Assembly (NCBI GenBank): GCA_964548075.1
Contig: CAZJQQ010000005.1
Location: 64,252-128,251 of the forward strand
Direction of reading: 5' to 3'
DNA length: 64,000 nt
DNA from: an uncultured Clostridia bacterium
GTDB taxonomy: Bacteria > Acidobacteriota > Blastocatellia > UBA7656
Of the stretch, positions 2,189 through 57,850 are shown in pieces. Numbering within the stretch: the stretch's first letter is position 1; each line of letters opens with the position of its first letter. The position numbers were made by a program, and so were the translations under genes. Under the pieces are notes generated by a model. The model searched no databases and was not told the origin of the DNA. It saw nothing but the letters and a program-made list of their open reading frames with translations.

Positions 2189-5167
2189 TTAGTGTCCCGC
2201 TTTGCCGCTTGCCGCTGGAATCGCTACTGGCGCTGGCGGCTTGGGATCTTGCTTCTTGTCCTGAACGGCGGGTGCGGGTGTAGCAGCGGCCCGTTGCGGC
2301 GCGTTCGGGTTAGGCATACCTTCTACCGAACTGCGCTGCGGGGCTCTCGGTCCAAGCGTGCCGTCGTTCCTGACAATGCGCGGTGTAAGGAAGAACAGAA
2401 TCTCATCCGAATCGCGGCGCGTGCTTCGTTTCTTGAACAGTTCACCGAGCAGCGGGATGCTCGACAAACCCACTGTCCGATTAATCGAGTGTGACTCGGT
2501 GTCGATGTTGATCCCGCCCATAACCGTCGTCCCGCCGTCGGCAACGAGCACCGTCGATTCAGCCGATTGAGTATTGATACCCGGCGTGCCGTTGTTGAAC
2601 TGTCCTGCCAACGAGAAGTTGACCGTGTTGTTCTCGGCGACGACGTGCATCAGCACCTGTCCGTTCTCTTCGATTATCTGCGGCGTGATCTCGAGCCTCA
2701 GCGCAGCAGTCACGAACGTCGTGGTGATCGTGTTGTTCGAGACGGTCTGCACGGGTATCTGCACGCCGTTGATTATCTCGGCTGTCTTGTTGTCCGTAGT
2801 TGTGACGCGCGGGCTGGCGATGGTTCGAATCTGGCCTTTGGTTTCGGACGCCGATATCGCCATCGAGAGAAGCCCGGTTCCAATCACGCCAGTGGTCAAA
2901 CTCAATACGGTGTTTGCAACTCCCGCTCGAAGCGCGGTGTCAGCAAACGGACCGATAAGGTTCGGTCCCAGCCCCTTTTGCGCTCCCGAATCAGACCCAC
3001 TCCCAGAGCCGCTGCCGGAGCCGCCTCCAGATGAACCTCCGGAGCTGCCACTGCCACCGGGTTGGAGACCTCCGCCAACGACTTGGACTGGCGTTGTTTC
3101 AAACAGGCCGCCGCGACCATTCTTGGCGAAGGCCGTGCCCGCAAGCTCGGTGCCCACGTCGCGAAGGAAGTTTCGGTTCGCGATGACTATTCGGGCTTCG
3201 ATTTCGACCTGAGGCTCGGGACGGTCGAGCTTGGCGATCATGTCCTCAATCACCTGTGTGTACTCAGGCAGGTCGGTGACGATCAAGCTGTTGGTGCGGA
3301 TGTCGACCTCAGTCCGCCCACGCTTGCTCAACCGGCTTTCGACTATCGAACGCAGCGAGCCCTGGCCTGAAGCGCCACCGCCCGCGCCGCTACTCGACCC
3401 GCCGCCCGAGCTTCCGCCGCCCGAGGCGCCGCGCCCCATCGAATTGAGCTGTCCTGAAGCGCGAGCATACTTAAGGTGGATGATCTTGGTAACAAGCGGA
3501 ATCTGGTTGCTCTGTGCCTCTCTTATCGCTAGCTGCTGATCTTCCTCTTCTTTCACTGCGGTCAGCGTGGCTATTCTGATCATGCGACCGTTGCTTTCGC
3601 ACACGGCGCCCAGGCGGTTGGCGCGCAGAACCGATTCCATCACTTGATTCCAGGGTATGTCGGTCACTCGGATATCGACCGGGACAGCGGCGACCGATTT
3701 ATCGATGATAAAGTTGACGCCATATTGTTGCGAGATGAACCGCAGCATGTCGCGGATGTCGACGCCGGCACGCAGGTCGAAGCTTATCATTCCTCCAACA
3801 TAGCCCGAGTCGCAAAACGCGATCTCACTCCGCCTGGGCATCTGCCCGGCAGGGTTCGATTGAGACCGCTGGACATCCGTCGCGCTACGAACGACCGAAG
3901 GCTGCGCCGGCTGGGCCCCGGGCTTACCGGCACTGGGCTGTGACGTTGGCTGGGAAGGCAACGGCAGCGCCCTGTTCGGTTGAGGTGTTACTCGCGGCGG
4001 CGCGCTCTGTCCGTTTGCTTGAGCAAGCAGATTAGCGGTCGCGACTGCGTCCTTGGCAGACTGATCAGCGGGTTTTTTGTTGTCGGTCTTGTTCTCAATG
4101 CGATCGCCGGCAACTCTCACTTCGGGCTTAGCCTGAGGCGTTGCAGCGTCTTTCACCGGGTTAGGGTTCTGCTGCGCTTTCACTTCAACCTTCGGTGCGC
4201 TTTCCTCACGCGAACTGCCGGTGTCTCCTATGGTGATGACGAGCGCTTCGCCTTCGCGAACCACGCGGTATGAGACTTTCGATTTGGTGTCGAGCACTAT
4301 GCGAACTACATTCGGGCTTGGCTGACCTACACGGAAGCGCTCGACCAAACCCGCGCCTACAACGGTAGTCTTGTTGCCGAACGCCGAGCGGACGCCGGTG
4401 ATATCCACGACTATGCGCCACGGGTTTGGCAGCACGAAGTCCTTATACTGCGCCGCGCCGTCGGCATCGACCACGATTCGAACTGCACCGCCGGCTGGTT
4501 CCGAGCGAACCCCACGGATAAGTGTGGCTGGTTTCAAGTCGCTTGGCCTAGGCTTGACTCTCTCGGGCGCGGGCTCCGGGCTTGCTGGCGTTGAACTCTT
4601 CGCAACTGGAGCCGAGTACATCACCACGCCTGGTGCCGCGACGTGCGAATCGCTCTTTGTCTGGCTCGCATGTTTTGCGTCCTTGGCTTCCGTAGGTGCG
4701 TCCTTCTCAATCCTGGCCTTGGCCGGCGTAGGCTTGACGTCTGGGGTTACTTCGAGCACAAGGGTGTTGCCATTAACCGTCGAGCGGTCTCGAGCATCTG
4801 CTCGAACGGTGACTTCGATTCTGGCCACCGCGCGTCCCGCGGTGCCGGCGCCAACGCGCGACTGTCGAACCATGATTGATTCTACGAGCGCGCTCTTGAC
4901 GCTATACGCAGGCGCAAGCCTGGAAGCCTCGCCGCCCGGCAGATCGATGACGATCAGCCGGTCCGTCGGTCTAAACACCGTGTAGAGGGGTGGCGCGCTC
5001 GACTCTATCAGGATGCGCGTGAGCGATCCCTCAGTCTCGTGTTTGAGCGACACCAAAGCGAACGCCTCGGCGCGTGCGCCTGCGTTCAATCCTGCAAACA
5101 CGCTTACATTGCTCACAAGCGCGAGCAGCATCAGTGATACGACAAGCCTCCTAGCGATCATAGCCAT
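2189..5167 (-). CDS. pilQ: type IV pilus secretin PilQ
   Basis: C-terminal secretin domain (…GGINIDTESHSINRTVGLSSIPLLGELFKKRSTRRDSDEILFFLTPRIV), AMIN-like N-terminal region, and signal peptide MAMIARRLVVSLMLLALVSNVSVFA (start chosen at the internal M). It has long Gly/Ser-rich linkers and a Pro/Ala-rich C-terminal tail. Confidence 0.85.
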   Translation of the reverse strand: MAMIARRLVVSLMLLALVSNVSVFAGLNAGARAEAFALVSLKHETEGSLTRILIESSAPPLYTVFRPTDRLIVIDLPGGEASRLAPAYSVKSALVESIMVRQSRVGAGTAGRAVARIEVTVRADARDRSTVNGNTLVLEVTPDVKPTPAKARIEKDAPTEAKDAKHASQTKSDSHVAAPGVVMYSAPVAKSSTPASPEPAPERVKPRPSDLKPATLIRGVRSEPAGGAVRIVVDADGAAQYKDFVLPNPWRIVVDITGVRSAFGNKTTVVGAGLVERFRVGQPSPNVVRIVLDTKSKVSYRVVREGEALVITIGDTGSSREESAPKVEVKAQQNPNPVKDAATPQAKPEVRVAGDRIENKTDNKKPADQSAKDAVATANLLAQANGQSAPPRVTPQPNRALPLPSQPTSQPSAGKPGAQPAQPSVVRSATDVQRSQSNPAGQMPRRSEIAFCDSGYVGGMISFDLRAGVDIRDMLRFISQQYGVNFIIDKSVAAVPVDIRVTDIPWNQVMESVLRANRLGAVCESNGRMIRIATLTAVKEEEDQQLAIREAQSNQIPLVTKIIHLKYARASGQLNSMGRGASGGGSSGGGSSSGAGGGASGQGSLRSIVESRLSKRGRTEVDIRTNSLIVTDLPEYTQVIEDMIAKLDRPEPQVEIEARIVIANRNFLRDVGTELAGTAFAKNGRGGLFETTPVQVVGGGLQPGGSGSSGGSSGGGSGSGSGSGSDSGAQKGLGPNLIGPFADTALRAGVANTVLSLTTGVIGTGLLSMAISASETKGQIRTIASPRVTTTDNKTAEIINGVQIPVQTVSNNTITTTFVTAALRLEITPQIIEENGQVLMHVVAENNTVNFSLAGQFNNGTPGINTQSAESTVLVADGGTTVMGGINIDTESHSINRTVGLSSIPLLGELFKKRSTRRDSDEILFFLTPRIVRNDGTLGPRAPQRSSVEGMPNPNAPQRAAATPAPAVQDKKQDPKPPAPVAIPAASGKAGH

Positions 5168-13409: not shown

Positions 13410-13886
13410 CTAGAATCGTGAGACGAGAAAGAAGCCACCGCCGATCGCAACAGCATCCTCCAAAAGGGCCACCACCATATCCGGGACCTTAAGAGCCTTG
13501 ACCAGACGCGTCCGCAACTCGTAGCCGGCGAAGCCGCCCGCCACTCCACCCACGCCGCCAACCACTCCTCCCAGCACCGCGGATTGATTTGCGGCCGCGC
13601 AGAGCGCGGCGCCCGACAGCCCACCGAGTGCGAACCGAGCGACGAGACCCAGGAGCTCAGTTCGCCTCGGCGTCTTCGGGAGCTTGTCTACGATGATCTC
13701 GACAACCGCGCCAGCAGTCAGAATGTATACGGCCGCCGTCGAGGCCAAAAAGGCCAGTTGTGAATGTTGAAGGTCGAGCCATTTCCAGTGCGCGGCCCAA
13801 CTGACCACGGCTGGCGCTGTCATAGAACGCAGGCCGGCTACTACGCCGATGGCAAACGCGAGGACGAGAACTGTGGTTGTGTTCAT
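13410..13886 (-). CDS. small integral membrane protein (DUF4126-like)
   Basis: 158 aa, four hydrophobic segments, Gly-rich GGVVGGVGGVAGGFAG segment. Confidence 0.4.
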   Translation of the reverse strand: MNTTTVLVLAFAIGVVAGLRSMTAPAVVSWAAHWKWLDLQHSQLAFLASTAAVYILTAGAVVEIIVDKLPKTPRRTELLGLVARFALGGLSGAALCAAANQSAVLGGVVGGVGGVAGGFAGYELRTRLVKALKVPDMVVALLEDAVAIGGGFFLVSRF

Positions 13887-13960
13887 ACTCTCTCCGGTGT
13901 ACCAAACTTTTCTTTAGCCAGTGACTTGTACCGGGCGTTTCGCTAGCAATCAATTCGGTA

Positions 13961-14075
13961 AGGAATCCGTGCAGATCCGTCGAATCCGTTTCGTCCGCGG
14001 TCTATGCGTTCGGAAGACTCGTTGTCCTAAAGCATAGATCACGGATGACACTGATCCGACTGATTTGTGCGGATT
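13961..14075. repeat. ~110-nt intergenic palindromic element, copy A (second copy at 47857-47965)
   Basis: ggaatccgtgcagatccgtcgaatccgt...ggtctatgcg...gcatagatcacggatgacactgatccgactgatttgtgcggattcc aligns at about 80% identity with 47857-47965. It contains three atccgt direct repeats, an internal ggtctatgc/gcatagacc inverted repeat, and terminal inverted repeats ggaatccg/cggattcc. Confidence 0.6.
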
Positions 14076-14101
14076 CCACACCTTCACTAATCGAATGTCT
14101 G

Positions 14102-15067
14102 TTATACGCCGCTAGCTTCATTCAGAAGCTCGATTGATGACGGATCTAACTCGAGTCTTGTCGCTTCGACCAAATCGTGGAGTTGCTCCAGGTTCGTGGC
14201 GCTCGCTATAGGCGCGGTGATGCTAGGGCGCGCGATCAGCCACGCGAGGGCAACCCTCGCAGGAGTTGAATTGAGTTGACTTGCTGTTTGATCCAGCGCT
14301 TTGAGGATCCGAAACCCGCGCTCATTCAGATACTGTTTGGTTCTGCGGCCACGGGGGCTTTTTGATAGATCGTCTTCCGACCGGTACTTTCCAGTGAGAA
14401 ACCCGCAGGCTAGCGAGAAGTACGTAATCACCCCTAGTCCTTTTTCCATGCAGAGGGGTTCAAGGTTCGTCTCATAGTCCGCACGATCATAGAGATTGTA
14501 TAACGGCTGCAGGCTCTGGTAGCTCGGGTAGCCCCCTTGTTCGCTGACAAGCAACGCCTGCGAGAGCCGCTCCGCGCTGTAGTTTGAAGCGCCAATCGCC
14601 CGAACCTTCCCTTGCTCAATCAATCGCGAGTAGGTCTCAGCAGTCTCGTCCAGCGCCGCCTCCGCATCATCCTTGTGCGACTGGTACAAATCGATGTAGT
14701 CGGTCTGTAAACGTGTCAGTGAATCCTCGACTGAACGAAGGATATGATCTCGCGAGAGTCCCTTCTTATCCGAAGCCATTTCCATTCCGACCTTAGTGGC
14801 AATCACTACCCCTTGACGCTTCCCACTTCGCTTCAGCCACTTGCCAATGATCGTCTCGGATTCGCCGCCGGCGTGGCCGGGAACCCATACCGAATACACA
14901 TCGGCCGTATCGACAAGGCTGAATCCGGACGCCACAAACGCATCAAGCAACGTGAATGACGTCGCCTCATCCGCAGTCCATCCAAAGACGTTTCCTCCAA
15001 GAGCCAGCGGAGCGATCTCCAGCCCGGCGTTTCCTAGCCTACGTTTCTTCATATCTGTCTTCGCCAT
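14102..15067 (-). CDS. aldo/keto reductase
   Basis: AKR family signature LGNAGLEIAPLALGGNVFGW...DTADVY...; 321 aa. Confidence 0.85.
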   Translation of the reverse strand: MAKTDMKKRRLGNAGLEIAPLALGGNVFGWTADEATSFTLLDAFVASGFSLVDTADVYSVWVPGHAGGESETIIGKWLKRSGKRQGVVIATKVGMEMASDKKGLSRDHILRSVEDSLTRLQTDYIDLYQSHKDDAEAALDETAETYSRLIEQGKVRAIGASNYSAERLSQALLVSEQGGYPSYQSLQPLYNLYDRADYETNLEPLCMEKGLGVITYFSLACGFLTGKYRSEDDLSKSPRGRRTKQYLNERGFRILKALDQTASQLNSTPARVALAWLIARPSITAPIASATNLEQLHDLVEATRLELDPSSIELLNEASGV

Positions 15068-17403: not shown

Positions 17404-17532
17404 TTCGTAGTTCGGCCTTTAGGCGGAAGTTTGTAGTTCAGAGTTCAAGCTTCAGCTTGCTTTCAGGGCTTAGCTGATCGAATCACGCAAGCTGACGCTT
17501 GAACTCTGAACCCCGGAAGGCCGAACTACGAT
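17404..17532. repeat. compound palindrome (15-bp outer stem plus 25-bp inner stem) in the leader of the molybdoenzyme gene
   Basis: tcgtagttcggcctt (17405-17419) pairs with aaggccgaactacga (17517-17531). gttcagagttcaagcttcagcttgc (17436-17460) pairs with gcaagctgacgcttgaactctgaac (17487-17511) with 1 mismatch. Confidence 0.6.
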
Positions 17533-33965: not shown

Positions 33966-35837
33966 ATGATGAGCCCGAAGAAGTCGTTGGCGCTTATGAG
34001 TACCGCCGGTCTGCTGTGCCTTGCGTTGATCACCGTTCCGCCGCCGCTGCAAGCTCAACAAACCTTCGACCTCAAAGCCGCCTACACGAAGTCCGAACAC
34101 ATGATTGCGATGCGCGACGGCGTGAAGCTCTTTACCGCCGTCTACTCGCCCAAGGATGGCTCGCAGAAGTATCCGATACTTCTTTGCCGCACGCCCTATA
34201 GCTGCGCGCCGTACGGACCCGACAAATACAAAGAGACCATCGGTCCATCGCCGCTGTTCGCCAAAGAAGGCTACATCGTCGTCTATCAGGATGTGCGAGG
34301 CGCCTGGATGTCCGAGGGGATCTACGTGAATATGCGGCCGCAGAACGACAAGAAGGGACCGAAAGACATCGACGAAAGCAGCGACACCTATGACACAATC
34401 GACTGGCTGGTGAAAAACGTTCCGAACAACAACGGGCGAGTCGGTATGTGGGGAATCTCATATCCGGGTTTCTATGCCGCGGTCGGAACGATTGACGCGC
34501 ACCCGGCGTTGAAAGCCGCGTCGCCACAAGCTCCGATCGCCGACTGGTTCATCGGTGACGACTTCCATCACAACGGCGCGCTCTTTTTGCCGCACGCATT
34601 CAACTTCTTCTCGAGCTTCGGCAGACCACGGCCCAAACCGACGGCGTTCGCGGATGATTCACGATTCAATCACGGGACAACAGACGGCTATAAGTTTTTC
34701 CTCGAGATGGGTCCGCTCGCGAACGGCGACAAGAAGTACTTTCATGGAAACATTGCCTACTGGAATGAGATGATGGAGCACCCGAACTACGACTCGTGGT
34801 GGCAGGCTCGCAACACGCTGCCGCATCTGAAGAACATCAAGCCTGCGGTGATGACCGTGGGCGGATGGTTCGACGCCGAAGACCTGTTCGGCGCGCTTAA
34901 CACCTACAAGTCAGTCGAGAAGCAAAGCCCCGGCGCTTACAACATCCTTGTGATGGGTCCGTGGTTTCACGGCGGATGGGCGCGAGGCGACGGCGAGGGA
35001 CTCGGCGACGTTCGCTTCGGCGCAAAGACGTCAGTCTTTTATCGTGAGAACATCGAGTTGCCGTTTTTCAATTACTATCTAAAAGACAAGGGTGCGCTGA
35101 AACTCCCGGAAGCTTACGTGTTCGAAACGGGATCGAACAAGTGGAAGACCTATGATCAGTGGCCCCCGGCCAACGCGCGCACTCAGAACTTGTACTTCAA
35201 TGCAAACGGTAAGCTGTCGTTCACCGAGCCTTCTGATTCCAACTCGTTCGATGAGTACGTAAGCGACCCGGCCAGGCCCGTGCCTTTCATCAACAACATC
35301 GCGATCGGGATGACTCGCGAGTATATGGTCGACGATCAGCGCTTCGCGGCGAGGCGGCCGGACGTGCTCGTTTATCAGACCGATGTGTTGACTGAAGACA
35401 TAACCGTAGCGGGTCCGCTCACCGCGAGTCTGCTTGTTTCTACAAGCGGGACCGATTCCGATTTCGTTGTGAAGCTGATCGACGTTTATCCCGACAACGC
35501 ACCGGACAATCAGCCTAATCTCGGCATGAAGATGGGCGGCTACCAGATGCTGATCCGCGGCGAACCTATGCGAGCCAAATTCAGGAACAGCTTCGAGAAA
35601 CCGGAAGCGATGACGCCTAACAAGGCCGAGAGGATCGGATACGCGATGCCCGATGTGAATCACACCTTCATGAAAGGCCACCGCGTCATGGTGCAGATTC
35701 AAAGCAGTTGGTTCCCGCTCGTGGACCGCAATCCGCAAAAGTTCGTCAACATCTACACCGCCAAAGAGTCAGACTTTCAGAAAGCGACGCAGCGAGTCTA
35801 TCGCTCATCTCGCGTTGTCTTGAATGTTGTGAAGTAG
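33966..35837 (+). CDS. CocE/NonD family hydrolase (S15 X-Pro dipeptidyl-peptidase-like), secreted
   Basis: Signal peptide; MRDGVKLFTAVYSPK...YPILLCRTPY...GRVGMWGISYPGFY (Ser nucleophile); C-terminal beta-sandwich. Confidence 0.75.
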   Translation: MMSPKKSLALMSTAGLLCLALITVPPPLQAQQTFDLKAAYTKSEHMIAMRDGVKLFTAVYSPKDGSQKYPILLCRTPYSCAPYGPDKYKETIGPSPLFAKEGYIVVYQDVRGAWMSEGIYVNMRPQNDKKGPKDIDESSDTYDTIDWLVKNVPNNNGRVGMWGISYPGFYAAVGTIDAHPALKAASPQAPIADWFIGDDFHHNGALFLPHAFNFFSSFGRPRPKPTAFADDSRFNHGTTDGYKFFLEMGPLANGDKKYFHGNIAYWNEMMEHPNYDSWWQARNTLPHLKNIKPAVMTVGGWFDAEDLFGALNTYKSVEKQSPGAYNILVMGPWFHGGWARGDGEGLGDVRFGAKTSVFYRENIELPFFNYYLKDKGALKLPEAYVFETGSNKWKTYDQWPPANARTQNLYFNANGKLSFTEPSDSNSFDEYVSDPARPVPFINNIAIGMTREYMVDDQRFAARRPDVLVYQTDVLTEDITVAGPLTASLLVSTSGTDSDFVVKLIDVYPDNAPDNQPNLGMKMGGYQMLIRGEPMRAKFRNSFEKPEAMTPNKAERIGYAMPDVNHTFMKGHRVMVQIQSSWFPLVDRNPQKFVNIYTAKESDFQKATQRVYRSSRVVLNVVK

Positions 35838-45981: not shown

Positions 45982-47850
45982 CTAGGGCGCCAGGACCGGA
46001 ATCGCTACGTGCGAGGCGAAACGCTTCGATCGAAACACACGTTGCGTAGCGGGTTGGTAGTCCGACTCCTTCGCCCTGAAGATGTTCTCAACAAATTTCT
46101 GCGGATTGCGGTCGATCACCGGAAACCACGTGCTCTGCACCTGGACCATTATCTTGTGGCCCTTCAGAAATCGGTGCGTGTTGCCGTGCAAGTCGACAAC
46201 GTACTCGTTCACCTGACCGGGCGTGATCGCTTCGGGCTTGTCGAAGTTCTTGCGGAACCGTCCTCGCAACACGTCGTTGGCGATCATCAACTGATAGCCG
46301 CCCATTTTCGGGTCCTTCGGGTATTGCTCGGGATAGACATCAATCAGCTTCGCTATCCAATCGCTGTCCGAGCCGGAAGTCGAAGCCCATAGATGAGCCG
46401 TGATGTCGCCGCTGACGACGAGGTCTTCAGTAAGCGGCTCGGTCTCCCAACTCAACACATCGGGCCGCATGTGAGCGAAGCGCTGGTCCTCCAACAGCCA
46501 CGTATGCCATCCCGAGCCGCCAGGAAAATAAGTCGGCTCGATCGGACGAGGCCGGTAAGGAACCGGCCGCGCGGGATCGGAAACGTAGCTATCGAGTTCG
46601 CGCTCGCCATCACTCGCCGGCGCTTCGAAGCCGAGCCTCCCGCCGCTGTGAAAGTATAGATTGCGCTCCTTAGCCTGGCGAGGCGGCCACTGATCGTAAG
46701 ACATCCATTTGTTCGAGCCAGTCTCGAACGTCAAAGCCTCGGGTTGCTCGAGCCTGCCTTTATCTTTCAAGTAATGGGCGAAGAACGGAGCTTGAATCTT
46801 TTCGCGAAAGTACTGGCCGGTCGCGCTCTCGAAATCAACCCGGCCGAGCTTCCTGCCTTCGCCACCGCCCCAGCCTCCGTGGTTCCACGGTCCAGCGACA
46901 AGGTAATTCAGATGGCGGGGGTCGTTCTTCTCGAGAGTCTTATAGATTCGAAGCGGTCCGTAGAAGTCTTCCTGGTCCCACCAGCCCGCGACGTTCAACG
47001 TCGGGACTTTCACCTCGCCGGTTTGTCGCGGGAACGCCTGACGCCGCCAGAACTCGTCATAGTTCGGATGCTCGACAAAATCGTTCCAGGTCGGAATCTT
47101 TCCGTGGAGGTATTTCTCGTTGACGTTCGAAAGCGCGCCGAGTTTCAAGTACCACTCGTAGGTGTCGTAGAGATCGAACTTGAATTGGTCGCTGACCTTT
47201 GACGTCTCCATCATCGCCGCGTATTCGAATCCGTAGCTCAACCGGAACGCACCGTTGTGATGAAAGTCATCGCCGAGATACATATCGGCCGGCGAGGCTT
47301 GAGGCGAGGCGGCCTTTAACGCGGGATGAGGGTCAAGCATCGCCATAACCGTCAGCCAGCCGTCATAAGAAACGCCCAGCATTCCAACTCGCCCGTTGTT
47401 GTTCGGCACGTTCTTGAGCAACCAGTCGATCGTGTCGTAAGCGTCGGTGCTCTCGTCGATTGATTTCTGGTCGCGCTTATCGCGAAGCGCGCGCTGCATA
47501 ACGAACTGGCCTTCTGATTTGAAACGTCCGCGATCATCCTGGAAAACGAAGATGTAGCCTTCGGCAGCCAGATCCTTGAAGTAGTTGTTAAACGCGCCGG
47601 CCGCTCTGCCGTCTATGCCGTAGGGAGTTCGAAGCATGATGAACGGCAGCGGCTCGCTCGAACCTTTGGGCGCGTAGATCAACGTGTGCAGGCGGACCCC
47701 ATCGCGCGTGGGAATCATCGTCTCGGTCTTCTCAAACCGACTGAGGATCTCAGAACCGGTCTGCGCGCGAGTTGCCTCCAGTAGGACGCATAGCGCGACC
47801 GACACGAGTAGTAAGAAAGGAGCCTTGTTACGCATGTATGATTGACTCAT
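45982..47850 (-). CDS. CocE/NonD family hydrolase (paralog of 33966-35837)
   Basis: Signal peptide; about 45% identical to the other CocE/NonD protein (…MLRTPYG…GRVGMLGVSYDGW…). Confidence 0.75.
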   Translation of the reverse strand: MSQSYMRNKAPFLLLVSVALCVLLEATRAQTGSEILSRFEKTETMIPTRDGVRLHTLIYAPKGSSEPLPFIMLRTPYGIDGRAAGAFNNYFKDLAAEGYIFVFQDDRGRFKSEGQFVMQRALRDKRDQKSIDESTDAYDTIDWLLKNVPNNNGRVGMLGVSYDGWLTVMAMLDPHPALKAASPQASPADMYLGDDFHHNGAFRLSYGFEYAAMMETSKVSDQFKFDLYDTYEWYLKLGALSNVNEKYLHGKIPTWNDFVEHPNYDEFWRRQAFPRQTGEVKVPTLNVAGWWDQEDFYGPLRIYKTLEKNDPRHLNYLVAGPWNHGGWGGGEGRKLGRVDFESATGQYFREKIQAPFFAHYLKDKGRLEQPEALTFETGSNKWMSYDQWPPRQAKERNLYFHSGGRLGFEAPASDGERELDSYVSDPARPVPYRPRPIEPTYFPGGSGWHTWLLEDQRFAHMRPDVLSWETEPLTEDLVVSGDITAHLWASTSGSDSDWIAKLIDVYPEQYPKDPKMGGYQLMIANDVLRGRFRKNFDKPEAITPGQVNEYVVDLHGNTHRFLKGHKIMVQVQSTWFPVIDRNPQKFVENIFRAKESDYQPATQRVFRSKRFASHVAIPVLAP

Positions 47851-47856
47851 GCCGCC

Positions 47857-47965
47857 TCGATCCGTGGCAATCCGTCAAATCCGTGTCATCGGTGGTCTAT
47901 CGGTTCGTATTGAGTCGCATAGACCATCACGGATGACACTGATTCGGCGGATTTGCGCGGATACG
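47857..47965. repeat. ~110-nt intergenic palindromic element, copy B (copy A at 13961-14075)
   Basis: tcgatccgtggcaatccgtcaaatccgt...ggtctatcg...gcatagaccatcacggatgacactgattcggcggatttgcgcggatacg. Same architecture and orientation context (between two minus-strand genes) as copy A. Confidence 0.6.
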
Positions 47966-47998
47966 CTCCATCAGTAATAACGCCGATGTCCCCGCTAG

Positions 47999-49023
<1,025 letters not shown>

Positions 49024-49024
<1 letters not shown>

Positions 49025-50271: not shown

Positions 50272-50300
50272 GCGTTCTCCTCAGTGCAAAGATTCCCAAA

Positions 50301-50351
50301 CACAAAGGCACAAAGCCACGAAGGTTCGCTTTGTGGCTTTGTGCCTTTGTG
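50301..50351. terminator. 19-bp perfect stem hairpin followed by T-rich tracts on both strands (intrinsic terminator after the DUF1080 gene)
   Basis: cacaaaggcacaaagccac (50301-50319) pairs with gtggctttgtgcctttgtg (50333-50351), loop 13 nt. TTTATTT follows on the plus strand and TTTGGGAATCTTT on the minus strand. Confidence 0.55.
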
Positions 50352-50352
50352 T

Positions 50353-50970
50353 TTATTTGATCTCTTTCACTCGCACGCTTCTGAACGACACCCGCGAAGT
50401 CGGATCGTGGTTCTGCAAACCAATGTAGCCCTCGATGCCGCGTGTGCCGTCAAACTCGTTCACCTTCTCGCCGTTCAGCACCACGGTGTAGTGCTGGCCC
50501 ACGATGGTGATCTGATACTTGTTCCACTCGCCGGCCGGCTTTGACGCAAGCCTTGTCGCTGCAAACTGGTCGTAAGCAGATCCAGTCTGAAACTTCAGCC
50601 CGTTCTTGTCGCAGTCATCAATCTGGATCTCGTAGCCCTTGGTGACCGCGTGCCACGGGTCATCGCTCTTCTCAGGAAAGCGAACAAAGATGCCCGAGTT
50701 ATTGCACTTGTTGTTCACCTTCCATTCGACCTCGAGCGTGTAATCCCGAAACGATCGCGTCTCGTAGAAGAGCAGTCCCATCCCGGCCTGAGTCACGAGT
50801 GCTCCGTCTTCGACCGCGAAACTTCCCTTTCCGATATGCTTCCACCCCGTCTGGTCTTTGCCGTTGAACAGCTCGATCCATTTGCCCGAGGGCTTTGTCT
50901 GCGGCATCGCAAACGCAGCAAGCGCTAAACTCAAGGCCAGCCCTGTTACTAACAATGTTTGTCTTCTCAA
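50353..50970 (-). CDS. DUF1080 (3-keto-disaccharide hydrolase-like) secreted protein
   Basis: Conserved DUF1080 core (WIELFNGKDQTGWKHIG...GYIGLQNHD). Proposed TTG start after RBS gggagg gives a Tat-like signal LRRQTLLVTGLALSLALAAFA. Upstream track codons lie in an AT-rich repeat region and are unlikely to be coding. Confidence 0.65.
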   Translation of the reverse strand: MRRQTLLVTGLALSLALAAFAMPQTKPSGKWIELFNGKDQTGWKHIGKGSFAVEDGALVTQAGMGLLFYETRSFRDYTLEVEWKVNNKCNNSGIFVRFPEKSDDPWHAVTKGYEIQIDDCDKNGLKFQTGSAYDQFAATRLASKPAGEWNKYQITIVGQHYTVVLNGEKVNEFDGTRGIEGYIGLQNHDPTSRVSFRSVRVKEIK

Positions 50971-51037: not shown

Positions 51038-52726
51038 TCACAGATTTCCCTTCTTGTGCTCTTCAACGATGTACTCACATGCTCGAACCGTCAGCGCCAT
51101 CATCGTCAGCGTAGGATTCTGACAACCGATCGACACGAAACACGCCCCGTCGGTCACGAACAGGTTCTTCACATCCCAGCTCTGATTGAACCGGTTCAAC
51201 ACCGACGTCTTCCGGTCGGCGCCCATGCGCGCGGTGCCGACTTCGTGAATGCACAAGCCCGGCGGCGCCAGGGTTTCACTCGCACGTGCCACCTCGAACC
51301 CCGCTTCGAGAACCATCTCCTTTATGCTTTCGAGCGCGTCGGCCGCCATTGCGCGTTCGTTGTCGCCGTGCGAGCAGTCGATGTGCGCCGCCGGAATTCC
51401 CCACTTGTCTTTGACGTTCTTGTTGATCGTCACGCGATTCTCTTTTCGCGCGAGCATCTCGCCCCACATCCCGATCGAAAACGGCGCGGCGTCCTTGACC
51501 TCGCGCACCATCTTCTTGAACTCGGAGCCGAAACCGGGAATCTGTTTCAAATTGGTCGGCAGCATCCCGCGTTGAGAGCTGCCTTGCATGCCGTACCCGC
51601 GAATGAATTTCGGATGCCGCTCGTTGACGTTTCGGAATTTCGGAATGTATATGCCGTTCGCACGTCCGTCGTCGTAGTTGTAAGGATACTTCGAAACCGC
51701 CGGCACGAGCCCGCTGACTCCGATCTGGAAGATATGATCCATCAGGTATTGACCCAGGACGCCCGACGAGTTTCCGAGCCCCGCTGGGTGCTGCCGCGTA
51801 GCGCTGTTCAGCAGCAAACGAGTCGATTCAATCGTCGAAGCGCAGAGCACGACGACTTTGCCGAAAACCTCGAACGCCTTCTTTGTCACCTGATCGATGC
51901 AGGCGATGCCTGTTGCTTTGCCGGTCTTGGCATCGACAATGACGTGACTCGCCACGGCGTTTGTACGCATTGTGAGCCTGCCGGTCTTGGCCGCGGCGGG
52001 AAGCGTCGAACCGGGACTGCTGAAATAAGAATAGGTCGAGCACCCCCGATCGCAATGCCCGCAGTAGTGACACGCCGCTCGGCCGTTGTGTCTTTGGGTC
52101 AGGATTGCTGTGCGGCCGATGGTGACTTTGCGATCTTTCCAGCGACGTTCGACTGCTCTCTTCAAGAGCTGCTCACCGCAGGTCATCTTCATCGCGGGAA
52201 GAAACTTTCCATCGGGAAGATTGGGAACGTTCTCGTAGGCGCCGCTGATGCCAACGAATTCTTCGACCTTGTCGTAGTAGGGCGCGAGTTCGGCGTAGGA
52301 AATCGGCCAGTCGACGTCGTAGCCGTCGCGGCTCGCGGCTTTGAATTCGTAATCCGACAAGCGATAGCTCTGGCGGCCCCAGGTGATCGTGCGCCCGCCT
52401 ACCTGCCGCCCACGAATCCAATCGAACGGCTTTCGATCAGCCGTGGTGTAAGGGTTATCGACATCGTCGACGAAGAACTGGTTTCCGTAGGCGTTACACG
52501 CGTAGCACTTTGATTGGACTTTTTGGCGCGCGCGGCTGGCGGCGGTGTATCGATCTCTGGCTTCGTAGGGAAACAGATGTTCTGTGAAATCCTTCTCCGG
52601 ATCGAGATTGCGCCCGGCTTCGAGCACGATCACGCGCATGCCTTTTTCGGTGAGCTCTTTCGCAGCCCACCCGCCAGTCGCGCCCGAGCCGACAACTATC
52701 GCGTCGTAGATTTCTTGTTTTGCCAT
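51038..52726 (-). CDS. GMC family FAD-dependent oxidoreductase
   Basis: [19 protein letters not shown]ossmann motif and a GMC C-terminal region (HEVGTARMG); 562 aa. Confidence 0.85.
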
Positions 52727-55847: not shown

Positions 55848-55923
55848 GCATGGAGTTCAGGCTTTAGCCTGGTCTTGGCTCGGCCAATCAGAACGAACAC
55901 AGGCTAAAGCCTGAACTCCATGC
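55848..55923. promoter_or_regulatory. 23-bp perfect inverted repeat in divergent promoter region (candidate operator or palindromic element)
   Basis: catggagttcaggctttagcctg (55849-55871) pairs with caggctaaagcctgaactccatg (55900-55922), 28-nt spacer. Located between the divergently transcribed isomerase (start 55771) and GMC oxidoreductase (start 56023). Confidence 0.5.
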
Positions 55924-56022: not shown

Positions 56023-57732
56023 GTGGCACAGCAGAAGACCTACGACGCAATAATCATCGGCTCGGGCGCCACCGGCGGGATGGCCGCAAAAGAACTCACC
56101 GAGCGCGGCATGCAAGTGCTCGTGCTCGAAGCCGGCCCGCCCGTGAATCCCGCACGCGACCTCAGCTCCCACCGCTGGCCTTTCCAGTCCATGTATCGCG
56201 GCTTTGGCGCGCCCGGTTGGAAAGACCAGGATCAATGGATGCAAGCGACCGCCGGCGAGTTTAGCCGCCAGTTCTACGTCAAAGACACCGAGCATCCTTA
56301 CACCACCGATCCGGGCAAACCCTTCCTCTGGGTGCGGGCGCGAATCGTCGGCGGGAAGACGCTTCACTGGGGACGCATGTCCTATCGGCACTCGGACCTT
56401 GATTTCAAAGCCGCCAGCAACGACGGCTTCGGCGACGACTGGCCAATTAGCTACCAGGAACTTGCCCCGTACTACGACAAAGCCGAAGAGTTCATAGGCG
56501 TGAGCGGAAACCGCGACGGCTTGCCGCACCTGCCCGACGGAAACTTCATGCCGCCCATGAAGCTCAACTGCGGCGAGCACCTCCTGCGCAAAGGCGCGGA
56601 GAAAGTTGGACGGCGCGGAATCCCAATGCGGCTGGCGATGCTCACCGGACAGCCCAAGGCCCATATGAAAGGGCGCCTGAAGTGTCACTACTGCGGCAAC
56701 TGCGGCGACGGCTGTGATGTTGGAGCGATGTTCAACTCGCTCAGTTCGACGCTGCCGGTGGCTGAAGCGACCGGCCGGATGACGCTCCGGCCCAATTCGA
56801 TTGTCCGGCACATAATCGTCGACACAAATACGAGCAAGGCCAAAGGCGTCGCCTTTGTAGATCGAGTCACTCATCAGGAGTATGAGGCAGTTGGCAAAAT
56901 AATCGTGCTCGGCGCGTCGACTCTCGAATCGACTCGCATTTTGCTCAACTCGAAGTCGCGGCAGCATCCGAATGGACTTGGCAATTCCTCGGGCAAGCTG
57001 GGTCATTACTTGATGGACCACTTCGGCGGAATCGGCGCGAGCGGCTACTTCAACGTGCTCGCCAGCCGCGATCCGGTGAATGAAGACGGCAAGACTTCCG
57101 GCTTGCTGATACCCCGGTTCCGCAACGTGAGCAAAGAAACAAAGCAGCAGCGTTTTGTTCGCGGCTACGGGTTCGAGTGTGGTTCGGGCGCGCGCATGTT
57201 TCCCGCGTTCGTCAAGAACCCGGCGGTGACGCCCGGCTTCGGCTCGGAATTCAAACAGCGAGTGCGGCGCTACTACACGACTCCGGTGAGCCTGACGACT
57301 CGCGCAGAGATGCTCGCGCGGATTGAGAACTACGCGGAGATCGACCCGGCTGGCGTCGTCGACGCGTGGGGCATACCGGTGTTGAAGATCCACATCCAGT
57401 ACTCGGACAACGAGCGCGAGATGGCTCGCGACGCCGCGCAAACCAGCGAAGAGATACTTCGCGCAGCGGGCGCAGAGGTTGTCTCGACTGGAGGCCGTAT
57501 GACCGCGCCGGGGCGGATCATTCACGAGCTGGGCACTGCGCGCATGGGCAATGACCCGAAGACGTCGGTGCTGAACAAGTTCAATCAGAGTTGGGACGTG
57601 AAGAACTTGTTTGTAATTGACGGCGCATGCTTCGTTACGAGCGCGAACCAGAACCCGACGCTTACGATGCTGGCGCTGACGATGCGCGCGTGTGATCGAC
57701 TCGCGGATGAGTACAAGAGAGGGAATCTTTAA
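56023..57732 (+). CDS. GMC family FAD-dependent oxidoreductase (paralog of 51038-52726)
   Basis: YDAIIIGSGATGGMAAKEL and a GMC C-terminal region (HELGTARMG); 569 aa. Confidence 0.85.
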   Translation: MAQQKTYDAIIIGSGATGGMAAKELTERGMQVLVLEAGPPVNPARDLSSHRWPFQSMYRGFGAPGWKDQDQWMQATAGEFSRQFYVKDTEHPYTTDPGKPFLWVRARIVGGKTLHWGRMSYRHSDLDFKAASNDGFGDDWPISYQELAPYYDKAEEFIGVSGNRDGLPHLPDGNFMPPMKLNCGEHLLRKGAEKVGRRGIPMRLAMLTGQPKAHMKGRLKCHYCGNCGDGCDVGAMFNSLSSTLPVAEATGRMTLRPNSIVRHIIVDTNTSKAKGVAFVDRVTHQEYEAVGKIIVLGASTLESTRILLNSKSRQHPNGLGNSSGKLGHYLMDHFGGIGASGYFNVLASRDPVNEDGKTSGLLIPRFRNVSKETKQQRFVRGYGFECGSGARMFPAFVKNPAVTPGFGSEFKQRVRRYYTTPVSLTTRAEMLARIENYAEIDPAGVVDAWGIPVLKIHIQYSDNEREMARDAAQTSEEILRAAGAEVVSTGGRMTAPGRIIHELGTARMGNDPKTSVLNKFNQSWDVKNLFVIDGACFVTSANQNPTLTMLALTMRACDRLADEYKRGNL

Positions 57733-57740
57733 ACTTTTTT

Positions 57741-57832
57741 GGACTGCGGCGGGAAGGTACTCCGCGACGCCGCTTTTTCTCTGCGAATCGGAAACAAAAG
57801 CGGCGTCGCGGAGTACCTTGCCGCCGCAGTCC
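57741..57832. repeat. 36-bp-stem palindrome 8 nt after the GMC stop (REP/MITE-like or protein-binding site)
   Basis: ggactgcggcgggaaggtactccgcgacgccgctttt pairs with aaaagcggcgtcgcggagtaccttgccgccgcagtcc (1 mismatch), loop about 18 nt. It generates identical N-termini in two artefactual track ORFs (MDCGGKVLRDAAF). Confidence 0.55.
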
Positions 57833-57850
57833 AAATCCGCCGCAGCCTAA

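Follow-up and report, generated by a model that had tools for sequence, protein, structure and literature searches.

The described systems closest to the element considered here are the repetitive extragenic palindromes (REPs), with their hairpin-forming doublets (REPINs), and the miniature inverted-repeat transposable elements (MITEs). The element is a palindromic repeat found in two copies, A and B, within 64,000 nt of contig CAZJQQ010000005.1 from an uncultured acidobacterium (this whole stretch is called the window below). REPs and REPINs resemble it in being non-coding, intergenic palindromic repeats that show no target-site duplication and often lie just downstream of stop codons; REPIN hairpins measure ~100 nt, and the gene of the REP-associated tyrosine transposase (RAYT) is flanked by inverted copies of the repeat, as genes of the GxxExxY nuclease family are flanked by arrays of the kind seen in A and B. 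However, the REP unit (20-40 nt) is a short, imperfectly palindromic sequence headed by a conserved 5' GTAG, whereas the arms of A and B are direct heptamer arrays that are not self-complementary and contain no GTAG. The enzymes differ as well, RAYT being a Y1 enzyme of the HUH class and the array-associated protein having a PD-(D/E)XK fold; RAYTs are usually single-copy and GxxExxY genes probably multi-copy per genome. MITEs such as Correia/NEMIS, ERIC, RUP and Nezha are likewise small and non-coding, with inverted-repeat ends and a long hairpin, and they are dispersed, vary in presence or absence between close relatives and are often co-transcribed with their neighbours. Like MITEs, A and B have terminal inverted repeats, as their arms pair along nearly the whole length, but no target-site duplication and no insertion sequence with matching ends was found for them, and their inverted repeat spans nearly the entire element and is internally periodic. 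We class A and B as a non-autonomous palindromic repeat that lacks defining features of MITEs, REPs, integron attC sites, intrinsic terminators and Rfam families. By analogy, REPINs and MITEs would come closest to the element in the way it works, GxxExxY taking the part of RAYT or transposase, and on balance we lean, with some reserve, towards reading it as a gene-less foldback element that is mobile-like and tied to the GxxExxY family.

Each copy is one long imperfect hairpin with a stem of ~50 bp. An earlier note, drawn up from the letters of this DNA, had listed three upstream ATCCGT direct repeats and an almost identical 45-nt core as separate features. On its opposite strand, the core of each copy likewise contains the three-unit ATCCGT pattern, with 3 mismatches. 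The upstream repeats thus form one arm of a single hairpin and the core the other, which had been overlooked. Each arm holds four ATCCGT(G)-type units at a spacing of 10/9/9 nt (about one helical turn), followed by a GGTCTAT tail; the fourth unit, beyond the three ATCCGT repeats, is degenerate, and the loop between the GGTCTAT tails is 16-24 nt long. The parts of the two copies are as follows.

13961..14077: copy A, a single imperfect hairpin of ~117 nt (covariance model 111 bits on the plus strand, 82 bits on the minus strand)
13961..14008, plus strand: arm 1 of A, GGA-ATCCGT-gcag-ATCCGT-cga-ATCCGT-ttc-GTCCGC-GGTCTATGC, spacing 10/9/9 nt, with the GGTCTAT tail
14009..14032: apical loop of A, gttcggaagactcgttgtcctaaa, homologous to the loops of L154 (a metagenome locus) and L191 (the orthologous locus of a relative)
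14033..14077, plus strand: arm 2 of A, GCATAGAT-CACGGAT-gac-ACTGAT-ccg-ACTGAT-ttgt-GCGGAT-TCC, the inverted array previously called the core
47856..47965: copy B, a single imperfect hairpin of ~110 nt oriented as A (covariance model 90 bits plus, 67 bits minus)
47857..47901, plus strand: arm 1 of B, cG-ATCCGT-ggca-ATCCGT-caa-ATCCGT-gtc-ATCGGT-GGTCTAT
47918..47965, plus strand: arm 2 of B, GCATAGACCAT-CACGGAT-gac-ACTGAT-tcg-GCGGAT-ttgc-GCGGAT-ac
14078..14097 and 47966-47990: flanks of A and B on the side of the upstream gene, weakly similar to each other

When arm 1 is aligned with the reverse complement of arm 2, 33 of 49 columns are identical in A and 35 of 50 in B. The minimum free energy of the two copies is -57 to -69 kcal/mol with RNA parameters (z -4.4 to -8.8) and -28 to -31 kcal/mol with DNA parameters (z -3.5 to -5.5). 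With RNA parameters the plus strand (the one antisense to the flanking genes) folds better by 5-6 kcal/mol, owing to G:U pairs; with DNA parameters the strands do not differ. This asymmetry is not evidence of selection, because A, B and L191 inherited it by descent.

The similarity of A and B excludes chance. The 18-mer ATCACGGATGACACTGAT is exact in both (chance expectation 0.01 matches), as is the three-unit array ATCCGTn4ATCCGTn3ATCCGT (chance expectation 0.04), and a covariance model scan of the 64 kb matched A and B with no third copy. Most of what had been reported about the pair holds in outline. Both repeats are present in sequence where they had been placed, and the estimate of about 80% identity was fair: a global alignment gives 86 identities in 121 columns, that is 71% with gaps and ~83% without, and a padded alignment gives 78%. 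The core is found in both copies (gcatagaTCACGG in A, gcatagaCCATCACGG in B) with a 3-nt indel between them, and the internal 9-bp inverted repeat exists but is imperfect, with 8/9 matches in A and 7/9 in B. The proposed terminal repeats ggaatccg...cggattcc belong to A only, the ends of B being gatccg...cggata. On the side of the upstream gene, weak similarity continues beyond the hairpin to ~14097 in A and 47990 in B, the flanks reading ACATTCG..TTAGTGAAGGTGT and ACATCGG..TTACTGATGGAGCGT respectively in gene orientation.

The gene context is also as described earlier, each copy lying just past a stop codon between co-directional minus-strand genes. Copy A is placed between the stop of an Aldo_ket_red gene (aldo-keto reductase, AKR; 14102..15067, minus) and the start of a DUF4126 gene (13410..13886, minus), and copy B between the stop of a Bac_luciferase gene (luciferase-like monooxygenase, LLM; 47999..49024, minus) and the start of a Peptidase_S15/PepX_C gene (45982..47850, minus). 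The genes flanking A and B have no function in common, and the homologues of their proteins are named Blastocatellia, Acidobacteriota, which places the host, a metagenome-assembled genome, in Blastocatellia. The 33.9 kb between A and B were also considered as a composite transposon, a reading that was rejected because the region beside B is syntenic in relatives. The peptidase gene at copy B has a paralogue within the window in inverted orientation (33966-35837, plus, versus 45982-47850, minus; 71-75% nucleotide identity). In the related contig L188, the second peptidase paralogue is reduced to its last ~60 codons beside the LLM gene (3556-3813).

Relatives of the element occur at unrelated loci. 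A search of metagenomes for exact matches to the 18-mer gave 58 loci, of which L163 and L154 are true relatives; both lie beside unrelated genes, and tblastx found nothing else in common with the window. L163 is a near-perfect palindrome, GGAATCCGYGCGAATCCGCCAAATCAGTGTCATCCGTG(ATG)GTCTAT, then a loop, then the inverse, with a DNA fold of -60 kcal/mol (z ~ -15), and copies A and B are decayed by comparison. L154 starts directly after the stop codon of a gene whose C-terminal sequence reads as putatively MurB-like. Its loop is homologous to that of A, and its orientation relative to the transcription of the neighbouring gene is opposite to that of copy A. The earlier note had suggested looking at structure and covariation, and RNAalifold on an alignment of A, L191, B and L163 predicts 43 pairs; at three positions of the stem, the A type and the L163 type differ in both arms. 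Since A and B have common arm-specific differences from the L163 consensus, both descend from an already asymmetric copy. Judged by their sequences, L163 would be a young, near-perfect copy and the window copies old and decayed ones, which together form an age series. Three short metagenome contigs are essentially the window strain and uninformative.

About 27 of the 58 loci (within L125-L181, e.g. L127, L133, L144 and L170; samples Ga0247841 and Ga0247842) belong to another family, ACCACGGATATCACGGATGACACTGAT..., laid out as ..AAAGACATTTTTACCACGGATATCACGGATGACACTGAT, ~70 variable nt and ATCCGTGnnATCAGTGTAATCCGTGGT, with flanks that differ from copy to copy. This suggests a high-copy element of the typical topology described below in one uncultured organism.

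At the AKR-DUF4126 junction, the orthologous site is filled in one close relative of the window and cleanly empty in another, and further relatives have a different hairpin there or none. The following states were found (amino acid identities are those of the DUF4126 protein to that of the window).

13918..14098: the 181 nt of the window absent from the empty site, comprising the hairpin with 21 nt towards AKR and ~43 nt towards DUF4126
L191 (91%): a diverged copy of the element at the orthologous place
L193 (92%): empty, reading ...gcggcgtgTAAcag, then the junction point, then ctaaagaaagg...ATG, with a 35-nt spacer
L192 (92%): as L193, with 20 nt added exactly at that point, making an 11-nt direct repeat
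L182/L183 and L186 (88-89%): an unrelated hairpin, its 5' arm extending into the stop codon of AKR
L187 (78%): a spacer of 26 nt
L184/L185 (87%): a spacer of 22 nt, the AKR gene being absent

Relative to the empty site in L193, the window carries a 181-nt insertion (13918-14098), and the distribution fits an element that comes and goes as a whole among closely related Blastocatellia of soil. Taken together, homology that includes the loop at unrelated sites, the occurrence of both orientations, the age series and the polymorphic site make it probable that A and B belong to a palindromic element that is dispersed and mobile-like, and do not serve their flanking genes as a regulatory site. The earlier proposal of a MITE- or REP-like mobile element therefore stands as regards a dispersed, mobile palindrome, for which the filled and empty sites and the unrelated loci speak; membership among MITEs or REPs/REPINs is not supported.

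Some further observations concern the same junction. L192 (1363-1417) and L193 (1363-1397) encode an identical DUF4126 protein (P0003) and differ by 20 nt (caaattctagcgtgtaacag), which sit at the insertion point of copy A and form a perfect direct repeat of 11 nt; this insert could be an excision footprint or unrelated slippage. The unrelated spacer hairpin of L182 (2378-2500) and L186 (2366-2500), GCCCTGGGAGCGCAGGCATCCCTGCC..., encodes in its 5' arm the last codons and the stop of AKR. Hairpin elements thus turn over at this place and can rewrite the 3' end of a gene. An apparent duplication of the AKR 3' end (GCTAGCG...) flanking A was rejected as a target-site duplication, as its score is reached by 361 of 2000 shuffles and it is absent in L191.

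The arm design of A and B is not confined to their own family. A scan of GTDB species genomes with ATCCGTn4ATCCGTn3ATCCGT found at least 120 loci, with ~17 expected by chance as estimated from the size of the collection. Among the matches listed, Verrucomicrobiota are most frequent, and the others are Planctomycetota, Acidobacteriota, Bacteroidota, Chloroflexota and Gemmatimonadota, together with several Proteobacteria and Methanoperedens/Methanosarcinales archaea; cultured carriers include Hymenobacter polaris RP-2-7, Larkinella terrae KCTC 52001 and Akkermansia. Bases outside the search pattern are conserved too, namely a G behind each hexamer and GG(T/C) behind the last, which gives an arm of (ATCCGTG n2-3) x3-4 followed by G(T/G)(T/C)CTAT or GG(T/C)(T/C)AAAA. 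This directional arm design is widespread across bacterial phyla and archaea, and A and B conform to it with at least three ATCCGT(G)-type units at 9-10 nt spacing, a tail and an inverted arm. Arm 1 of A and the arm of L115 (Caldilinea) are ~81% identical, counted by eye.

The usual topology of the class is (CACGGAT)n - interior - (ATCCGTG)n with the tails outside. The window copies show the inverse, with tails at the loop, (ATCCGTG)n-CTAT-loop-ATAG-(CACGGAT)n, as do L071, L015, L138 and L165. Of the matches listed, 87 are intergenic and 25 lie inside open reading frames (ORFs) by crude gene calls. The intergenic ones fall in 11 divergent, 20 convergent and 56 tandem regions against a background of 118, 122 and 377, so that arrays among the matches listed are slightly depleted in divergent regions, which is not decisive given the crude gene calls. 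Spacers between heptamers match at 1.77 of 5 positions between the arms of one element and at 1.67 of 5 between unrelated elements. Conservation of the heptamers, but not of spacers and pairing, points to recognition by a protein, and the earlier suggestion that sequence is recognised beyond structure is supported across the class. Neighbouring arrays carry related units (TTCGTG, TCTGTG, TTTGTG and TCTGCG). A full-text literature search on heptamer arrays and GxxExxY/PF13366 found no description of the arrays or of their association with this family.

Hairpins of the ATCCGTG class also occur as tandem arrays with a period of ~130-270 nt and up to 7 in succession (L016 1014-1767, L033 4655-5203, L093 3313-4100 and L119). 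These could be mistaken by repeat finders for arrays resembling CRISPR. At two loci of the class an Acido-Lenti-1 RNA (RF01687) scores above the gathering threshold (L021 5924-5969, L043 64-109), at positions unrelated to the arrays.

Clustering of ORFs over the at least 120 loci showed one small family directly beside the arrays, GxxExxY, and, among the array loci listed, no recurring transposase family and no recurring Y1 family. GxxExxY (TIGR04256/PF13366) comprises proteins of 120-130 aa in the PD-(D/E)XK superfamily. Among the matches listed, its hidden Markov model (HMM) matches eight array loci (among them L020, L066, L068, L076, L084, L093 and L096) and one pseudogene (L069). The gene mostly sits tightly between (CACGGAT)3 and (ATCCGTG)3, on either strand, and among the matches listed no other ORF recurs between array pairs that are 250-1500 nt apart. 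The association was also approached from the side of the gene, with loci picked by protein alone, namely five viral contigs and one Acidobacteriota gene. Significant flanking inverted repeats of short tandem units were found in four of the five viral contigs (L194, L196, L197 and L198), the units being AT-rich 11-mers in L196 and L198 and CACAAAG/CACGAAG in L197. In the Acidobacteriota locus L199 (Candidatus Acidoferrum), the gene lies between CCACGGATGACACGGATGGCACAGAT and ATCCGTGAAATCCGTGCTATCCGTGGTAAAAA. Such arms thus repeatedly frame GxxExxY genes.

The family is large, with at least 8000 database matches. A search of GxxExxY against solved structures by sequence found no homologue. A structural model (predicted local distance difference test, pLDDT, 93.7) points to a minimal PD-(D/E)XK nuclease core, and a fold search with it returned generic PD-(D/E)XK relatives (lambda-exo, Cas4, MGME1, Hjc) at TM-scores of 0.45-0.58, so that no specific activity can be inferred for GxxExxY. 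PF13366 has been described as a family of unknown function that occurs in prokaryotes and viruses and has been transferred multiple times between Bacteria, Archaea and viruses (PMC3424549). Within the window, the hairpin at 50298-50354 has 27-nt arms of 8-nt units (CACAAAGG CACAAAGC CACGAAGG / CTTTGTGG CTTTGTGC CTTTGTG) with an A-tract before and a T-tract after it, and is located between two co-directional minus-strand genes; its units also flank the GxxExxY gene in the viral contig L197.

Several more distant systems show parts of the same design. Eukaryotic foldback (FB) transposons have long inverted arms built of tandem sub-repeats from ~10 bp upwards, many of their copies are non-coding, and the whole element snaps back into a hairpin; they are much larger, carry target-site duplications and use an unrelated transposase. 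Their likeness to A and B would be one of architecture only. For the GxxExxY cassettes, a possible analogy is offered by the intervening sequences (IVS) of 23S rRNA, which hold a very small ORF (S23p, a four-helix-bundle protein) within inverted repeats. The IVS stem in the transcript is cut by RNase III, and IVS are thought to be remnants of mobile DNA. However, IVS encode another protein family and are located in rRNA helices, and no phased heptamers have been described there. Integron attC sites are imperfect palindromes of 60-140 nt downstream of genes that are recognised as folded single strands, and they also occur in archaea. A and B differ from them in having no RYYYAAC/GTTRRRY boxes and no cassette array or integrase, and their flanking genes are not cassettes, because these are syntenic in relatives without the element. 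The short tandemly repeated repetitive (STRR) sequences of heterocystous cyanobacteria are intergenic tandem heptamer arrays of unknown function as well; their units, however, abut without spacers, they are cyanobacterial, and any link of theirs to GxxExxY would be speculation.

A and B may be gene-less members or dependants of a GxxExxY system, in the way that REPINs depend on RAYTs or MITEs on insertion sequences; this dependence we put forward only tentatively. The phased heptamers would then serve as recognition modules for a trans-acting protein, for which the GxxExxY nuclease is the candidate, and cutting or copying would act on a hairpin or cruciform. As both copies lie between co-directional genes, read-through mRNA would carry the ~50-bp stem, which as a secondary effect might become an RNase III substrate or a barrier to 3'-exonucleases. 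A bolder proposal, and a similarly doubtful one, is a hitherto unrecognised class of minimal selfish elements that crosses domains, in which a ~125-aa PF13366 nuclease gene sits inside phased inverted arms and the window copies are gene-less members. The unit sequence would vary by lineage (ATCCGTG, CACAAAG, ATCAGCG, AT-rich 11-mers in phages), and the nuclease or a partner would read the phased units on the hairpin or cruciform, spreading full cassettes along with abundant empty hairpins. A selfish system of nuclease plus phased repeat across bacteria, archaea and phages is credible but unproven.

The explanations that leave GxxExxY aside are less convincing. An RNA-level host element, such as an RNase III site, an mRNA-stabilising 3' hairpin or a terminator that works without a U-tract, would account for the position of both copies between co-directional genes just past a stop codon, for their very stable stems, for the at least four other long hairpins of the window that also lie between co-directional genes, and for the three compensatory stem changes between the A and L163 types. 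Nevertheless, in relatives that have this gene pair the element is missing or an unrelated hairpin is present, L154 is oriented oppositely relative to transcription, the better-folding strand with RNA parameters is the one antisense to the flanking genes, and the sequence including the loop is conserved at unrelated loci. A scan at Rfam gathering thresholds gave no match in the window, nor any over the arrays of 18 further loci, and copy A, when scanned permissively, matched only generic long-hairpin microRNA models at no more than 30.7 bits, compared with gathering thresholds of at least 83 bits. On the minus strand of both copies a terminator scan found no terminator-like site with a U-tract. 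The family of cis-regulatory RNAs that had been offered as an alternative to a mobile element is not upheld, given the lack of Rfam, terminator and promoter matches, the absence from orthologous regions and the occurrence in both orientations; we regard a function at the RNA level as quite unlikely. More improbable still is a double-stranded DNA operator for an OmpR/PhoB-, MraZ- or ribbon-helix-helix (RHH)-type regulator of the downstream DUF4126 and peptidase genes. Direct repeats with a 9-10 bp period upstream of two gene starts, and the conservation of heptamers but not spacers in the broad class, would suit such an operator. Against it, the flanking genes have no common function, orthologous promoters have no arrays, the listed arrays occur in convergent, tandem and divergent regions (in the numbers given above) beside unrelated genes in many phyla, and a promoter scan found no sigma-70 or other promoter-like site at either copy. 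A local two-copy duplication or a chance resemblance, to which the earlier note would have reduced the repeat had nothing similar been found elsewhere, deserves hardly any weight. It agrees with the presence of only two copies in the 64-kb window, but chance is excluded, and the homologues at the unrelated loci L163 and L154 and the orthologous copy in L191 refute it.

Alternatively, the hairpins could be REP-like repeats propagated by the host with a mobilising enzyme of their own or through hairpin-templated repair, with GxxExxY genes as separate selfish cassettes that land in them, much as IS1397 and ISKpn1 prefer REP palindromes as landing sites. This explanation, which we hold to be unlikely, would accommodate GxxExxY genes in both topologies, between (CACGGAT)n and (ATCCGTG)n in L020, L084, L096 and L199 and between ..GTGGTTAAAA and TTTTAACCAC.. 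in L068 and L076. It would also suit the fact that most of the at least 120 array loci listed have no GxxExxY gene within 8 kb, and that different hairpin families occupy the same AKR-DUF4126 intergenic region in relatives. On the other hand, matching arrays tightly flank the ORF even where the unit sequences differ (AT-rich in L196 and L198, CACAAAG in L197), and it would be easier to see why the arms vary in step with the lineage of the gene if the two moved as one. The reading of a mobile-like foldback element tied to GxxExxY has to contend with observations of its own, and the following weigh against it. Only two copies are present within the 64 kb, and the covariance model gives scores to long palindromes that are unrelated, the hairpin of L017 among them, so that its matches are not family-specific. 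Comparison of the filled with the empty site revealed no clear or significant direct repeat at the borders of copy A, and the pattern of presence and absence could reflect precise loss rather than gain. At copy B, gene order differs in relatives and L188 keeps only a 3' remnant of the peptidase gene, so that the orthologous context gives no information on presence or absence. The GxxExxY HMM found no match in the window and none in the contigs with window-type copies, and it is consequently through the similarity of the arms only that these copies are connected to the family. Moreover, most GxxExxY genes lie in the topology opposite to that of the window copies, a simple model of transposon ends does not explain both topologies, and the association could have arisen by insertion of GxxExxY genes into pre-existing hairpins.

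Taken by itself, the element is a small palindromic repeat in an uncultured acidobacterium, of a kind that is common and as a rule neutral. What makes it valuable is that it leads to a phased heptamer design that is common to hairpins in distant phyla and frames GxxExxY genes. If the link between arrays and gene is causal, it would give an orphan nuclease family a function, namely mobility or self-propagation, account for the origin of a large share of the unexplained structured intergenic DNA in environmental bacteria, and provide a compact recognition system of protein plus repeat that is testable in cultured carriers. The cross-domain class, if true, would explain many of the so far unexplained long hairpins with arms of tandem repeats that lie between genes in Verrucomicrobiota, Planctomycetota, Acidobacteriota, Bacteroidota, Chloroflexota and some archaea, and perhaps arrays of the STRR type as well. 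For annotation, it is advisable to mask such stems ahead of any search for small RNAs, terminators or CRISPR-like repeats.

The window contains several other hairpins and repeats. The hairpin at 2118-2186 has tandem heptamer arms, (ATTGCCG)3.5 and the inverse, in a style like that of the cyanobacterial STRR arrays, and lies directly after the stop of a minus-strand gene of 1022 aa. Two related long hairpins between co-directional genes are found at 17436-17511 and 55848-55923 (GAGTTCAAGCTTCAGCTTGC and GAGTTCAGGCTTTAGCCTG), and in L187 (1219-1523) about six tandem CCGACAAACTTCAGTTTGTCGG hairpins occupy the intergenic region upstream of the AKR gene; together these look like a second hairpin family with CTTCAG/CTAAAG loops. 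A palindrome with 40-nt arms that is 98% perfect (TTTGGACTGCGGCGGGAAGGTACTCCGCGACGCCGCTTTT) is located at 57738-57835 in a divergent intergenic region or at a gene start and appears to be a young copy of yet another family. Finally, two pairs of inverted repeats of 112-223 nt with 76-79% identity (51042-51264 / 57506-57728 and 52614-52725 / 56024-56135) probably mark paralogous GMC-oxidoreductase genes, because the GMC gene of L188 matches both regions.

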